IMG/VR virus record: IMGVR_UViG_3300030339_000011
Coordinates: 1 to 64,000 of that record
Origin: a virus
Direction: 5' to 3' (one strand)
DNA: 64,000 bases
The notes beneath the pieces are model-generated. The model worked only from the letters and a program-made list of their open reading frames with translations, did not search any database and was not told where the DNA came from. Within the stretch, counting starts at the first letter, position 1. Each line of letters opens with the position of its first letter. The translations under genes and the position numbers were made by a program. Below are positions 2,324 through 17,836 of this stretch, in pieces.

Positions 2324-2500
2324 ATGATATACAATATTGTTGATTCTGAAACAGGACAAAATATCACATATGATAGTAATAGTAATAGTACTATTACTAA
2401 AATTAATACTGATAGAGAAAAACTTGATAGTATTGATGATAAAGTTATAGAATCTTACATAAGAGAGAAAAAATTAAATAATATTAAAAAATCAAAATAG
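2324..2500 (+). CDS. famB small protein, 58 aa
   Basis: Manual ORF ending ...DKVIESYIREKKLNNIKKSK*. Same C-terminal motif as the next two ORFs. Confidence 0.45.
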   Translation: MIYNIVDSETGQNITYDSNSNSTITKINTDREKLDSIDDKVIESYIREKKLNNIKKSK

Positions 2501-2503
2501 TTT

Positions 2504-2686
2504 ATGAATAATTTTCCTTCAGATTCATTTATTCATTCATGTGATAATATATTTTATGGTAAAAAGGCATATAAAAAAACTATTAAATATGAAGAATCAA
2601 TTGAGGATAAGCTTGATAAAATTGATTTTAGTATAATAGAAAGATATGTCAGGAATAAAAAATTAAAAAACATAAATAAGAAATAA
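2504..2686 (+). CDS. famB small protein (C-term IERYVRNKKLKNINKK)
   Basis: ORF track. Tandem paralogue. Confidence 0.55.
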   Translation: MNNFPSDSFIHSCDNIFYGKKAYKKTIKYEESIEDKLDKIDFSIIERYVRNKKLKNINKK

Positions 2687-2687
2687 T

Positions 2688-2885
2688 ATGTATAATTTAG
2701 AAGATGACTTGAATTTGAATTTTGATGCTTTAATTAATGAATATAAAAATAAAAGAAATCCTTATGATTACGTAAATATCAGAGATATTGAAGAAACTGA
2801 TGAAGAAAAACTTGATAATATTGATATTAGAGTAATTGAATCATATGTTAGAAAGAAAAAATTAGAAACCATAAATAAGAAATAA
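2688..2885 (+). CDS. famB small protein (C-term IESYVRKKKLETINKK)
   Basis: ORF track. Starts 2 nt after the previous stop. Confidence 0.55.
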   Translation: MYNLEDDLNLNFDALINEYKNKRNPYDYVNIRDIEETDEEKLDNIDIRVIESYVRKKKLETINKK

Positions 2886-2886
2886 T

Positions 2887-3117
2887 ATGAATAACGATGA
2901 ATTATTAGTAATGTTAAGCTGTGTTAGTAATAGAAGTTTGAATCAAACTAAACTATTATTTGATTTGTGTGATAATGACTTCGAAAAATTAATGAAAGTA
3001 GAAGCTTGTGTGAAAAAGACTTTTGTTTCTTATTGTCCAGGAGATAAGGAACTTGTTAATGAGTTAGTTAATACTTGGGATGAATTAAGAAAAAAAGAAA
3101 AATCTAAACAAAAATAA
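2887..3117 (+). CDS. Hypothetical protein, 76 aa
   Basis: ORF track. 2-nt spacing from the upstream gene. Confidence 0.45.
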   Translation: MNNDELLVMLSCVSNRSLNQTKLLFDLCDNDFEKLMKVEACVKKTFVSYCPGDKELVNELVNTWDELRKKEKSKQK

Positions 3118-3119
3118 TC

Positions 3120-3290
3120 ATGAATACATATTTATTAATATTGCTAGGTATTTGGATTGCATCATTGATTGGTGTTATTTCAATATTTGTTATTTCAAAT
3201 TATATTGAAAAAATAAAAAATAAAAGGTTTGTAGAGTGGTGGAACAAAAATATTAGTCATCTATTAAATCCGGATGATCCTAGATTTTAA
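3120..3290 (+). CDS. Small TM protein, 56 aa
   Basis: Manual ORF MNTYLLILLGIWIASLIGVISIFVISNYIEK... One hydrophobic helix. Confidence 0.4.
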   Translation: MNTYLLILLGIWIASLIGVISIFVISNYIEKIKNKRFVEWWNKNISHLLNPDDPRF

Positions 3291-3302
3291 ATCTAACAAC
3301 AG

Positions 3303-3533
3303 ATGTTTAAAACAGGCGAGAAAGTATTATGTTTGCTAGATGATTATAAATATGATTATTTATATGGATATCATGTTAGAACACAATTATTAAAAAAGGG
3401 TAAAATATATACTATCATGAATCCTTATGATATAAGTTTAGAAGAATTACCAAATTACTCATTCTCAGATGGACATTTTATGTCAATGAGTGAATTAAGA
3501 AAGAAAAAACTTATAAAATTATCTGAATGTTAA
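3303..3533 (+). CDS. famA small protein (KVGDKVVC / RFxxLxEYRKxKL family), first of the array
   Basis: ORF track. Motifs GEKVLCL and SELRKKKLIKLSEC. Confidence 0.6.
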   Translation: MFKTGEKVLCLLDDYKYDYLYGYHVRTQLLKKGKIYTIMNPYDISLEELPNYSFSDGHFMSMSELRKKKLIKLSEC

Positions 3534-3790
3534 ATATAGGAGATAAAGTAGTCTGTATTAAAACATTTGATAGTGACAGAATAATTTGTGATCAATTAAT
3601 TATTGGAAAAGAATATGAAATATTAGATATTCATCAGAGTGTATATCTATATGAAGATCTTGAATATTTTAAACTTGTTGGTGTTGCATATAATCAGGAG
3701 TCATATAAATTTTTATCTATTCCTGACTATATAAAAAAAGTGAGATTAGAAAAACTTAATATTATAAAAAATGTTAAAATCAGGAAATAA
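3527..3790 (+). CDS. famA small protein
   Basis: ORF track. MLNIGDKVVCI... 7-nt overlap with the upstream gene (stop lies inside ATGTTAA). Confidence 0.6.
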   Translation: MLNIGDKVVCIKTFDSDRIICDQLIIGKEYEILDIHQSVYLYEDLEYFKLVGVAYNQESYKFLSIPDYIKKVRLEKLNIIKNVKIRK

Positions 3791-15662: not shown

Positions 15663-15665
15663 GAT

Positions 15666-16154
15666 TTAATTTATATTTTTGTGTTTTTTTATTGTCTCAT
15701 ATGCGCTATTTAATTTTGTGAAATTTCTAGTCGCAATTCCTTGATTTTCTAAAGTATCATTTTGATATTTGTCAGGATGCCATTTCATTGACAATTCTCT
15801 ATATCTTTTTTTGATGGTTTTTTCATCATCATCTTTATTTAATGACATCAATTTGAAAGAATTATCAACTTTATTATCGATTTTTGGACGATTTATGCTA
15901 CCATAATCTGACTCATAAAAGTCTGAATGATCATAATTTGTTGATTTCTTATAATGAAAATTTCCATTGCCTGCATTTTTAAATATATCTTTAAAATAAT
16001 CATCAAACTTTTCACCGTACATCTCTTTGAATAAATCATCTAAATCCTTATGCTTATAATTTTCGCCGTAATAATCGTTTTCCATTTCTCTTTCTTTTTT
16101 GTCATTTTCAGCTTTCATACGTTCTTTCTTTTTTTTATTATTAAAAAACCACAT
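15666..16154 (-). CDS. DnaJ (J-domain) protein, 162 aa
   Basis: C-terminal J-domain IKKRYRELSMKWHPDKYQND...LNSAYETIKK with the HPD tripeptide. N-terminal Asp/Glu/Lys-rich region. Confidence 0.75.
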   Translation of the reverse strand: MWFFNNKKKKERMKAENDKKEREMENDYYGENYKHKDLDDLFKEMYGEKFDDYFKDIFKNAGNGNFHYKKSTNYDHSDFYESDYGSINRPKIDNKVDNSFKLMSLNKDDDEKTIKKRYRELSMKWHPDKYQNDTLENQGIATRNFTKLNSAYETIKKHKNIN

Positions 16155-16158
16155 AACT

Positions 16159-16341
16159 TTAATTATTTTTATTGATTATTTCTAATTTTTTCTTTCTGAT
16201 ATAATTTTCAATAAATTTTATATCCATTTTTTCTAATGATTCTATATCTAATTTAGATTTGAATATTTTTCTCAATTCATCTGTCATATATACATCAAGT
16301 CTATCACTAAAACTTTTATCATTGAATTTACTAAATCTCAT
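16159..16341 (-). CDS. famB small protein (C-term IENYIRKKKLEIINKNN)
   Basis: ORF track. Confidence 0.55.
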   Translation of the reverse strand: MRFSKFNDKSFSDRLDVYMTDELRKIFKSKLDIESLEKMDIKFIENYIRKKKLEIINKNN

Positions 16342-16345
16342 GTAA

Positions 16346-16543
16346 TTATTTTTTATTAATTATTTCTAATTTTTTCTTTCTGAGATAATTTTCAATAATT
16401 TTTATATCCATTTTTTCTAATGATTCTGTATCTAATTTAGATTTGAATATTTTGTTACTTCTTTTTTTATTGAATTTATCCAGATAATAATAATCAAAAT
16501 TCTTATTATTATGAAAATCTTCATTGTCATTCATCCGATTCAC
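16346..16543 (-). CDS. famB small protein (C-term IENYLRKKKLEIINKK)
   Basis: ORF track. Near-duplicate of the previous gene. Confidence 0.55.
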   Translation of the reverse strand: MNRMNDNEDFHNNKNFDYYYLDKFNKKRSNKIFKSKLDTESLEKMDIKIIENYLRKKKLEIINKK

Positions 16544-16553
16544 AACAATATAT

Positions 16554-17057
16554 TTAATAATCTAATAAGCAAGCTTCATTATCTTTTATGATTATTCTAA
16601 TTGTAAAGTAAAAATAATCACAGATTATAATTTCTCTATGATCTTTGTATATGACTATTATAGTATCATCCAACAATAATTCTTTTTCAGTCATTACTTT
16701 GTTGAAATTTTTATTATCTACAAATGATATTAATTTTTCGTTTAAGAAATTTATAACTGCAGTTTTAAGATTTGGTTCCGCAAATTCAAAATCGTAATCC
16801 AATAAATAATTTGGATACCTGAATTCAAATTCATCTTCCGCTAATAATGATAACTCTTTATTTTCAGATAAAGAATCATAATTGAATTTTTTATATCCGT
16901 ATTCTTCTGTTGATGTTTTGATCAGATTAGATTTATCTGAATTCAAATCTTCTACCATTTCAGTTGGCATACAATCCTTTAAGCTTACATAATGATTTAG
17001 CTTTTTTAATTCCTTATATTTTTCTAAAAACTCTGTACGATCTCCTGTATAATACAT
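16554..17057 (-). CDS. Hypothetical protein, 167 aa
   Basis: ORF track. Confidence 0.5.
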   Translation of the reverse strand: MYYTGDRTEFLEKYKELKKLNHYVSLKDCMPTEMVEDLNSDKSNLIKTSTEEYGYKKFNYDSLSENKELSLLAEDEFEFRYPNYLLDYDFEFAEPNLKTAVINFLNEKLISFVDNKNFNKVMTEKELLLDDTIIVIYKDHREIIICDYFYFTIRIIIKDNEACLLDY

Positions 17058-17062
17058 GATAT

Positions 17063-17329
17063 TTAATTTTTTAAGTTTAATTTTTTAGATTTATATTCAA
17101 CGTATGTATGATACGATGTATATGATAATAGATAAATAATAAAAGATATTTCTGTAATATACAATATATTATTAAATATTAATGAGAATATATTAAAATT
17201 GATAATAATTTTATGATATGATAATAATCCTACTGAAATGGAAAATAATGATAGTATTAAAACTAACACTACTAAAATGATTCCAGATATTTTAGTTATC
17301 TTTTTCATCTTCTTTATCTTTATCTTCAC
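17063..17329 (-). CDS. Small TM protein (2-3 helices)
   Basis: ORF track. Strongly hydrophobic. Confidence 0.45.
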   Translation of the reverse strand: MKIKIKKMKKITKISGIILVVLVLILSLFSISVGLLSYHKIIINFNIFSLIFNNILYITEISFIIYLLSYTSYHTYVEYKSKKLNLKN

Positions 17330-17552
17330 AAAAATAATTAATTTTATCTGAATATTCCAATATGCTCATACCAAAAAACAATAAAATATCTAATTTGAAT
17401 ATACTATCCACCAAAATATAGATATTATTCACAAATGTGGTGTCTATTTTTAATAAATGTAAAACAACAGTGATTAAAAAAATTGCGACTAATGAAAATA
17501 ATAATACTAATCCTGAAATAAGAAAGAACTTAACTGCTTTTTTCGTTTTCAT
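17292..17552 (-). CDS. Small TM protein
   Basis: ORF track. Hydrophobic. ATGA overlap with the upstream gene. Confidence 0.45.
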   Translation of the reverse strand: MKTKKAVKFFLISGLVLLFSLVAIFLITVVLHLLKIDTTFVNNIYILVDSIFKLDILLFFGMSILEYSDKINYFCEDKDKEDEKDN

Positions 17553-17836
17553 TTTCTTTTATTTTTTAAATATTCTAATATTTCTTTGATTTCTACTCCA
17601 TTTAATATCTGATTATCTGTAAGAGTTGAGAAATCTCTTTTTGAGTAATTGAATTTTGCATTTTCAATATAAATTGAAATAGCTTTGATGAACCAGAATT
17701 TAGATAATTTTTGTACTTTACGTTTTCTAACATAAGATTCAATCTTCTTAGTATCAATATAATATAGGTAACTAACTAAATCTTTTTTTGTTTCTGGTGC
17801 TTTTCTATAGCATTCTCCATCAGTCATATCAGACAT
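17549..17836 (-). CDS. famB-like protein (IESYVRKRKVQKLSKF motif, Cys-containing N-terminus)
   Basis: ORF track. Confidence 0.5.
   Translation of the reverse strand: MSDMTDGECYRKAPETKKDLVSYLYYIDTKKIESYVRKRKVQKLSKFWFIKAISIYIENAKFNYSKRDFSTLTDNQILNGVEIKEILEYLKNKRK

Follow-up and report, generated by a model that had tools for sequence, protein, structure and literature searches.

Why do so many small proteins of otherwise different build, encoded in one part of a viral genome, end in the same short basic peptide? The question is raised by positions 2,324 to 17,836 of a 64,000-nucleotide stretch (positions 1 to 64,000 of IMG/VR record IMGVR_UViG_3300030339_000011; hereafter the window), for which an initial annotation, made from the letters alone, had proposed a common C-terminal basic tail on three small-protein families, famA, famB and famC. 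We defined the tail by a strict core, R-[KRNSEQTD]-x-K-[LIM]-x-x-[LI], lying inside the last 22 residues; examples of 20-residue tails are DIKIIENYLRKKKLEIINKK and LKEYRKQKLKKI. The shared tail was borne out: 30 genes in 2324-17836 carry the strict core, 15 on the plus strand (2324-6752) and 15 on the minus strand (10470-16543). Two further genes have relaxed tails (KKVRLEKL at 3527-3790 and RRDRLKQL at 6065-6301), and one gene in this range, 17549-17836, holds an internal copy of the motif. Across the whole window, about a fifth of the genes end in a basic helix of the form R-K-x-K-L-x-x-L/I.

The endings described for the individual families were largely confirmed. FamA, reported to end in EYRKxKL, reads in full ..RF-x-x-L-[KS]-E-Y-R-K-x-K-L-x-x-[LI] (at 3303-6752 and in 13314-13577), and famB, reported to end in IExY[LV]RKKKLxxL, reads ..L-D-x-[IM]-D-I-x-x-I-E-x-[YF]-[LIV]-R-K-K-K-L-x-x-[IL]-N-K (at 2324-2885, 12021-13075, 14086-15662 and 16159-16543). 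FamC does show the same pattern (KIRELKLLKL, KSRKIKLVTL, KIRKDKIILL), although the first of its members proves to be a famA barrel. The figure of three families proved a large underestimate, the motif being found also in a further family, famD, in singletons, and on 137 clusters of N-terminal heads across loci. Its distance from the protein end varies between 1 and 10 residues. Outside 2324-17836, the motif occurs internally in 932-1324 and in the eight famD members (30795-32188, 52530-53898 and 58164-59356).

Lys-rich composition does not account for these counts. Shuffling of whole proteins gave an expectation of 1.07 proteins with the motif against 38 observed, and shuffling of the last 20 residues, which keeps local Lys richness, gave 0.41 against 29 (the count without the GTG-start gene 3998-4261) and never exceeded 3 in 2000 trials. 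Reversed, R/K-swapped and R-to-K patterns each occurred twice, against 39 forward matches. Natural controls agreed: in the surroundings of the gene for a major-vault-protein-like (MVP-like) protein in other, related huge phages of the same base and Lys composition, tails were carried by 0 of 73 (L001), 0 of 32 (L037), 0 of 15 (L043) and 1 of 43 genes (L032), and in positions 1-50000 of T4 by 0 of 86. Taken together, the shuffles, the AT-rich controls and T4 indicate that the tail motif is not a product of Lys-rich composition. Chance of this kind, which had been named as what would refute the shared tail, was thus rejected.

Selection on the tail peptide and its spread among phages

Because the next gene starts 10-40 nt downstream of a tail, a signal in DNA or RNA had to be considered, in which an A-rich leader, a promoter, a coupling signal or a slippery site would impose Lys-rich codons at gene 3' ends. 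Upstream regions are indeed A-rich and nearly G-free (G-free from about -25 to -1), no Shine-Dalgarno motif precedes the start codons in any gene class of the window, Lys is likewise enriched at the C-termini of motif-free genes (13.7% vs 7.9%), and 8 of 29 tails contain an in-phase slippery heptamer, X_XXY_YYZ. The A-rich leaders without Shine-Dalgarno motifs explain why C-termini are Lys-rich even without the motif, but leave the motif itself unexplained.

Six codons, drawn from both Leu codon families, serve for the conserved Leu(+4) (TTA 32, CTT 20, TTG 13, CTA 6, CTG 5, CTC 1), and four for the tail Arg (AGA, CGT, AGG, CGA). Across 41 ortholog-like pairs between the window and two relatives, synonymous differences (identical amino acid, other codon) were as frequent in tails as elsewhere (28% and 26%), while amino-acid differences were fewer (37% vs 51%). 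Of 42 scored six-frame motif matches, 39 fell in the frame of a called gene, and the GTG-start gene 3998-4261 makes 40. No start codon is near the internal copies; distant phages keep the amino-acid motif, and control phages with equal composition and leaders lack it. Selection acts on the tail amino acids, not on DNA. The varied codons, the unchanged rate of synonymous divergence, the restriction to the coding frame and the internal copies speak against an origin in promoter, leader, coupling signal or heptamer, so that a nucleotide-level by-product is already largely refuted and hardly credible.

The tail is also modular. A profile of the famB module retrieved 163 proteins in a word-indexed search and 340 cluster representatives (50% identity) in an exhaustive one (E <= 0.001), all of 33-131 aa. 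Among the 150 best matches listed, the module lay almost always at the C-terminus, behind N-terminal heads that could not be aligned. FamA homologues keep the ending ..LKEYRKxKLxKI, and four from other metagenomes (P0188, P0190, P0192 and P0193) carry different C-termini, indicating that barrel and tail are separable. Scanning IMG/VR with a DNA pattern for R-K-E-K-L-x-K-L-N returned 57 loci: those of at most 27% G+C all contained tails, mostly several, and those above 29% contained at most one. The densest arrays reached 26 of 37 genes (L138) and 22 of 43 (L111), and in the variable small-gene arrays of tail lineages carriers make up 20-70% of genes.

All collected loci together yielded 285 distinct tail-bearing proteins from 22 lineage groups, all of at most 27% G+C. 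With tails removed, their heads formed the 137 BLAST clusters mentioned above, among them KOW/SH3-like barrels, coiled coils, membrane anchors, gp32-like and DUF6794 proteins, and apparently disordered or low-complexity sequences. Few of the heads can be recognised. On the DUF6794 protein the tail is added after a complete domain; an endonuclease VII-like protein has a weak tail only. A protein scan confirmed no famB gene in 185,579 species-representative genomes; 16 DNA-pattern matches there were dismissed as chance-like, since they fall in short ORFs lacking annotation or inside long ORFs that are unrelated. FamA and famB were also absent from GenBank phages by tblastn, including LR756500-503. 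The control loci, the IMG/VR scan and T4 show that the tail is specific to certain phage lineages and is not driven by composition.

Described families offered no counterpart. Among 85 famB-module members scanned with hmmscan, the best Pfam family matched 4 (E 0.022); precomputed Pfam assignments for 120 listed famB homologues contained none; the top PHROG matched 8 of 85 members (E 0.006), and no matched PHROG had a known function. Neither a PDB profile search with the module nor a literature search for the motif string returned anything. The SAP, HeH and Rho_N motifs (PF02037, PF12949, PF07498), similar in spacing by eye, were not among the 25 most-matched families listed out of 56 matched at E <= 1 by the 85 members, and the famB module ends about 7 residues past its Leu, without the second helix of a helix-extended-helix motif. 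Among the described families that could be tested, there is no match for this motif in its C-terminal helical form, scale and distribution, although short terminal peptides that direct diverse proteins to one shared site are known as such.

A candidate docking helix

The tail is predicted to be helical in both large families. The AlphaFold model of famA (pLDDT 89.5, pTM 0.73) comprises a small five-stranded barrel of predicted KOW/SH3-like fold, followed by helix 56-71, which is the tail. Pfam KOW/SH3 signatures matched this head only below threshold (SH3_12 E 0.08, PUA_4 E 0.0016). In the model of a famB protein from 16159..16543, an 18-residue terminal helix (47-64, pLDDT about 90) covers the tail and follows a poorly defined N-terminus, a helix and a two-residue break at M-D; Foldseek found no match to this model. 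FamA and famB tails align over 20 columns with a one-residue gap (hhalign probability 58%, E 1e-4), and famA members occur with Tyr at -1 or at -2, those with Tyr at -2 (..SDYNRKKKL in the window, ..ELYYRKKKL in relative L011) bridging this gap in register. Judged from spacing, the four residues common to the families, R(i), K(i+3), L(i+4) and L/I(i+7), occupy one helical side, in an arc of about 100 degrees.

Our preferred reading of the tail, at a probability of roughly 0.4, is a portable helix that docks proteins on, or addresses them to, a single partner that is common to all and abundant. Such a helix would tether many unrelated small accessory proteins to a single partner surface, which would be partly acidic and partly hydrophobic, and would mark diverse cargo in the manner of the T4 capsid targeting sequence (CTS), the coat-binding helices of scaffold proteins or the encapsulation peptides of microcompartments. 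Arg and Lys interleaved with two Leu/Ile, frequent Glu within the tail (RKEKLEKL) and the acidic helix that precedes the famB module would fit a protein-protein epitope better than a surface for DNA or lipid. Selection on amino acids, modularity, the predicted helix and lineage specificity all agree with the common sorting or binding signal of the initial annotation, and we infer from them that the tail binds a partner, although none was found. As the partner, another phage or host hub is possible at most, and the procapsid interior or a scaffold is doubtful.

Several observations weigh against a docking helix of this kind. No non-tail family recurs convincingly across 46 tail-rich loci within the available flanks. 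The MVP-like gene occurs in at least 70 phage loci without tails: among 80 MVP-like loci, six encode an MVP-like protein with at least 72% identity to that of the window; five of these have tail arrays (3-15 tails per locus), the sixth (L032) has 1 tail, and the other 74 loci have 0-1. This distribution does not support the MVP-like protein as a dedicated partner. The J-domain gene of the window is kept in close relatives (L011 and L031) and was not seen in the other tail-rich loci sampled; its product, confined in this way, was rejected as the partner. The eight famD proteins hold the motif inside a domain, membrane-anchored carriers argue against the capsid as sole destination, and the famA tail helix may simply pack on its own barrel. 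The conservation moment within families was not significant (P = 0.2-0.3), residues on other sides of the helix being conserved too, so the case for a one-sided helix comes from the i, i+3, i+4, i+7 spacing alone and a single binding face on the modelled helix is suggestive only.

Origin by inheritance has to be weighed as well. About 7 kb upstream of the window start, in the same phage, gene L009:1827-2408 encodes a truncated, tail-ended gp32-like single-stranded DNA-binding paralogue (193 aa; PF08804 30.5 bits against a cut-off of 26.8, phrog_224 E 1.6e-10, PDB gp32 E 4e-6), with counterparts at L003:2519-3091 and L012:2781-3356. In the HMMER alignment its tail, ..LSISNIIRKEKLKEL, matches the native T4/RB69 gp32 segment ..LSEMTSKDKFKSF.. 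with high posterior probability. In at least one case, therefore, aligned with gp32 SKDKFKSF, the tail was inherited as a helix rather than added as a tag, which is a further point against docking, and the alignment hints that the tail pattern may have an ancestor in a gp32 helix. The native segment in the C-terminal core of gp32 shares the pattern x-K-[DE]-K-[FL]-K-x-[FL] with the tail but has Ser at the position of the invariant Arg, and it is one case among 137 head groups.

Membrane anchors, the gp32 segment and the embedding in famD keep a second explanation serious, although we consider it unlikely: that the tail is a C-terminal helix serving structure or self-association, spread by descent and by cassette shuffling that keeps the 3' end, without any common external partner. 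New small genes would have arisen in the hyperplastic arrays through partial duplication or recombination and inherited the tail in this way. In its favour are the tandem arrays with overlapping stop and start codons; the famA model packs helix and barrel with high confidence, more than one helical side is conserved, and duplicated or internal tail copies exist. Tailless famA homologues, moreover, continue past the barrel, and the other C-termini look helix-like by eye. Yet the R..KL..L core is kept on disordered-looking, coiled-coil and membrane heads that offer no common fold to cap, and its Arg is nearly invariant and not replaceable by Lys (2 vs 39). About one hydrophobic heptad would also be too short for an autonomous coiled coil, and in a parallel homodimer the basic residues beside the Leu pair would face charge repulsion.

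The net basic R-K-x-K core, and a weak PHROG match of the famA head to a 'DNA binding protein' (phrog_14634, E 1.8e-5), raise a different prospect, a basic helix that anchors small proteins to AT-rich phage DNA, to RNA or to ribosomes. An invariant Arg could read the narrow AT minor groove, the famA heads are predicted to be KOW/uL24-like, and one tail sits on the gp32-like protein. Against this stand the abundance of Glu in the tail, the acidic helix before the famB module, the roughly neutral overall charge of that module, and the absence of any matched Pfam DNA-binding motif; Arg and Lys would further share a side with Leu/Ile, as is typical of a protein-protein epitope. Nucleic acid, which had been suggested as a common partner, is thus not favoured, and the explanation is a rather doubtful one.

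Many small accessory proteins, probably early ones, carry the tail at their end, which would also suit a handle for turnover or chaperones, that is, a C-terminal degron, adaptor or chaperone element timing the life of early proteins. Basic C-terminal recognition signals exist, for example that of MuA for ClpX, and a J-domain gene (15666-16154) lies inside the array and is kept in the close relative L011. The J-protein is, however, missing from the other tail-rich loci sampled, the motif stands at a variable 1-10 residues from the end and is internal in famD, and the tail resembles no known degron, all of which makes such a handle improbable. More improbable still is a membrane-targeting amphipathic helix of the MinD/FtsA type. 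The tail is terminal, amphipathic and basic, and some members are already membrane proteins, but these self-anchored members would not need it; it offers two or three hydrophobic residues only, acidic residues are common, and by spacing and position statistics Arg and Lys would interrupt the hydrophobic side at its centre instead of flanking it.

The docking helix, if real, would be a shared address on a fifth to two thirds of variable-region genes. Huge phages have hundreds of small genes of no known function, and the partner would give hundreds of orphan proteins a destination; it would show how these phages organise and deliver an accessory proteome, and would provide a portable cargo-loading tag. 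The motif also serves as a practical marker, since a simple pattern recognises a very AT-rich group of uncultured phages in metagenomes.

Known terminal tags and a second terminal class

The closest functional analogy is the T4 CTS. Its length is about 10 residues, and it is removed by the prohead protease. Like the tail, it is a short conserved terminal peptide that alone is common to diverse small phage proteins, and related loci show a T4-like context (gp32-like, endonuclease VII-like and T4_Y16D homologues). The tail is C-terminal and predicted to be helical, with some internal or duplicated copies, whereas the CTS stands at the N-terminus and is cleaved after (L/I)-x-E, a motif that does not accompany the tail; nor does the tail motif occur in the first 50 kb of T4. 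The CTS has been described as the sole feature common to the highly diverse, fast-evolving internal proteins of T4-type phages (PMC3012670).

In the P22 scaffolding protein, the coat-binding helix-turn-helix (PDB 1GP8/2GP8) likewise presents a basic C-terminal helix. Its ETYRKLK, confirmed in the P22 sequence, resembles famA KEYRKxK, with Arg and Lys three residues apart; in P22, R293 and K296 are required to bind the coat. The Leu positions of P22 (i+2, i+6 and i+9) are out of register with those of the tail (i+4 and i+7), and homology is not supported: hhalign aligned 7 columns at a probability of 2.9% for famA and, at 0.15%, nothing for famB, and the PDB profile search missed the P22 helix.

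Encapsulation peptides of microcompartments and cargo-loading peptides of encapsulins are short terminal peptides or amphipathic helices, with variable linkers, and bring unrelated cargo to one shell protein. No shell or encapsulin gene was seen here, the MVP-like protein being the only cage-like candidate nearby. In clamp-type systems, one short C-terminal motif on many unrelated proteins addresses a single hub. The tail sequence is unrelated to QL[SD]LF, to the PIP-box and to T4 gp45-binding motifs, and carriers at 20-70% of local genes go far beyond any known clamp client set. Three candidates examined by eye were dropped: clamp-binding, APIM and PIP motifs for unfit spacing or consensus; a nuclear-localisation signal because this is a bacterial virus and the core does not fit K-K/R-x-K/R; and mimicry of the FtsZ C-terminal peptide because the two have no more than 'FLRK' in common, and that in famB alone.

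A second class of terminal sequences lies beside the tail arrays. Between 18661 and 56831, the ending K[FY]N[ILVM] is found on 56 of the 140 window genes, an MKYIKKFE-like start on 42 and both on 37 (for example 19044-19430, 23841-24467, 34741-35490, 43424-50374 and 56265-56831); none of them has an RKxKL tail. Their bodies differ, including leucine-rich repeats, an ankyrin-like protein (29638-30090) and small barrels, and the class accompanies tail arrays in six lineage groups, including the distant L006 and L007. The MKYIKKFE-like N-terminus resembles the T4 capsid targeting sequence MKTYQEFIAE.

The two classes together cover 85 of the 140 window genes, are mutually exclusive and co-occur in those six lineage groups. 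A questionable, broader extension of the docking helix is that RKxKLxxL helices and MKYIKKFE...KFNI termini form a terminal-tag sorting system sending most of the accessory proteome to distinct destinations. Some proteins might, for instance, be loaded into the procapsid for ejection into the host, and others docked on a phage hub or compartment inside the cell. On this view, any newly born small gene could acquire the tail as a new C-terminal loading peptide.

Tail carriers and other genes of the window

On the plus strand, the first carriers are three small soluble famB genes (2324..2885; 58, 60 and 65 aa) ending in LDxIDxxVIExY[IV]R[EKN]KKLxxI, with cores at 2462-2485, 2651-2674 and 2850-2873 and identical or similar metagenome proteins (P0001, P0007, P0012). 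They are followed by a tandem array of 15 famA genes (3303..6752), with a KOW/SH3-like beta-barrel (MFKVGDKVVC...RF) and a helix ..LSEYRKxKLxxLxKC. Neighbouring genes overlap as A-ATG-T (for example at 5427-5441, 5633-5647 and 4250-4261). The Cys (TGT) found 2-4 residues from the end (KC, KCSK) arises because the next gene's ATG is read as AAA-TGT; a lipidation-type signal was dropped on this account. Gene 4255-4725 (+, 156 aa) has two barrels, the first of which has lost its tail: it is cut after ..LLSEYNKK and continues directly into the next FKIGDKVVC. This gene looks like a fusion of two neighbouring array members, and the two-barrel form is kept in relatives (P0121-P0123; L003:11727-12191).

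On the minus strand, a 137-aa singleton (10470..10883, core 10497-10520) ends in ..ISRNFKLQKINIANNLKI and has no homologue in related loci. Three famB genes (12021..13075) have an N-terminal membrane helix (Kyte-Doolittle 2.8-3.2 over 19 residues) and carry a degenerate upstream copy (LNIKDVESVLKFYKL) in addition to the terminal tail ..IEKYLRKKKIQKLK. The 'famC' group (13314..14089) consists of the famA-type barrel (13314-13577) and two Cys-rich small proteins, ending in [KS][IS]R[EK]xK[LI]xxL. Six famB genes with helical or coiled-coil heads (14086..15662; 55-126 aa) end in ..IE[NSK][YF][LIV]RxxK[LI]xxI, and two small soluble ones (16159..16543; cores 16174-16197 and 16358-16381) in SLEKMDIKxIENY[IL]RKKKLEIINK. 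The J-domain protein encoded inside the famB array (15666-16154, minus strand; DnaJ E 1.4e-12) has an acidic, aromatic-rich N-terminal half.

Two proteins combine an internal module with a degenerate C-terminal copy: a 95-aa protein on the minus strand (17549..17836), with an internal famB module (KIESYVRKRKVQKL, 17705-17728) and the second copy EIKEILEYLKNKRK, and a 130-aa protein on the plus strand (932..1324), with FVENYLRKIKLLKLNN at 1199-1222 and FEIKHIEEYVLRIKNN. FamD, all on the minus strand, has three members in 30795..32188 (W[FL]xxKFxSCY...YYDxx[FY][IV]RxxKLxx[IL], the motif at residues 39-47 inside a larger domain), three in 52530..53898 (YDExFIRKxKLxKLNN at residues 39-46) and two in 58164..59356. 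Across the eight members (W[FL]xxKFxSCY..YYDExFIRKxKLxKLNN..CLFEQD..CDYxEIW), C-terminal extensions vary; 69 homologues, all unannotated, lie on huge-phage-like contigs of up to 711 kb.

The window itself has 21-30% G+C, with small genes densely packed on both strands; no tRNA genes and no capsid genes were found in it. Starts without Shine-Dalgarno motifs, behind A-rich leaders, fit a Bacteroidota-type host. The largest gene in 2324-17836 encodes the MVP-like protein (7965-10424, minus strand, 819 aa), with MVP_shoulder (E 9e-28), Vault_3 and Band_7/SPFH matches, that is, major-vault-protein shoulder and repeat domains. Its only relatives in GenBank phages are in LR756500, LR756501 and LR756503 (462 kb and 735 kb 'uncultured phage' genomes; 50-53% identity). 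Through this protein the window resembles the huge phages of Al-Shayeb et al., the source of these genomes (PMC7162821); in that study the Mahaphage clade has the largest genomes, and Bacteroidetes are the predicted replication hosts. Syntenic relatives of the window lie on IMG/VR and JGI contigs of 200-700 kb. Relatives of the MVP-like protein were found on at least 136 IMG/VR viral contigs (38-90% identity, G+C 21-60%), and the gene seems to be a common, little-discussed one in large phages.

Tail arrays are not tied to this neighbourhood, as the setting of a locus from another lineage indicates: L013 (IMGVR_UViG_3300045973_000723) has six tail-bearing small genes at 1247-7133, next to what we take, by eye, to be a gp5-like baseplate-hub N-terminus, a sugar-kinase-like and a gamma-glutamylcyclotransferase-like gene.

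Elsewhere in the window, five large proteins are tail-fibre-like (37087-43333 and 54302-55303 on the minus strand, 59773-61299 and 61973-63550 on the plus strand). The N-terminus MINIQLASEEWV is common to 40934-43333, 54302-55303, 59773-61299 and 61973-63550, and MSKQTINIGTYPNDGTGD to 37087-38970 and 39034-40872. Several contain collagen-like stretches of Gly-x-x and an eight-residue repeat, N-x-I-G-S-x-F, in long runs, and these fibre-like proteins are probably receptor-binding paralogues.

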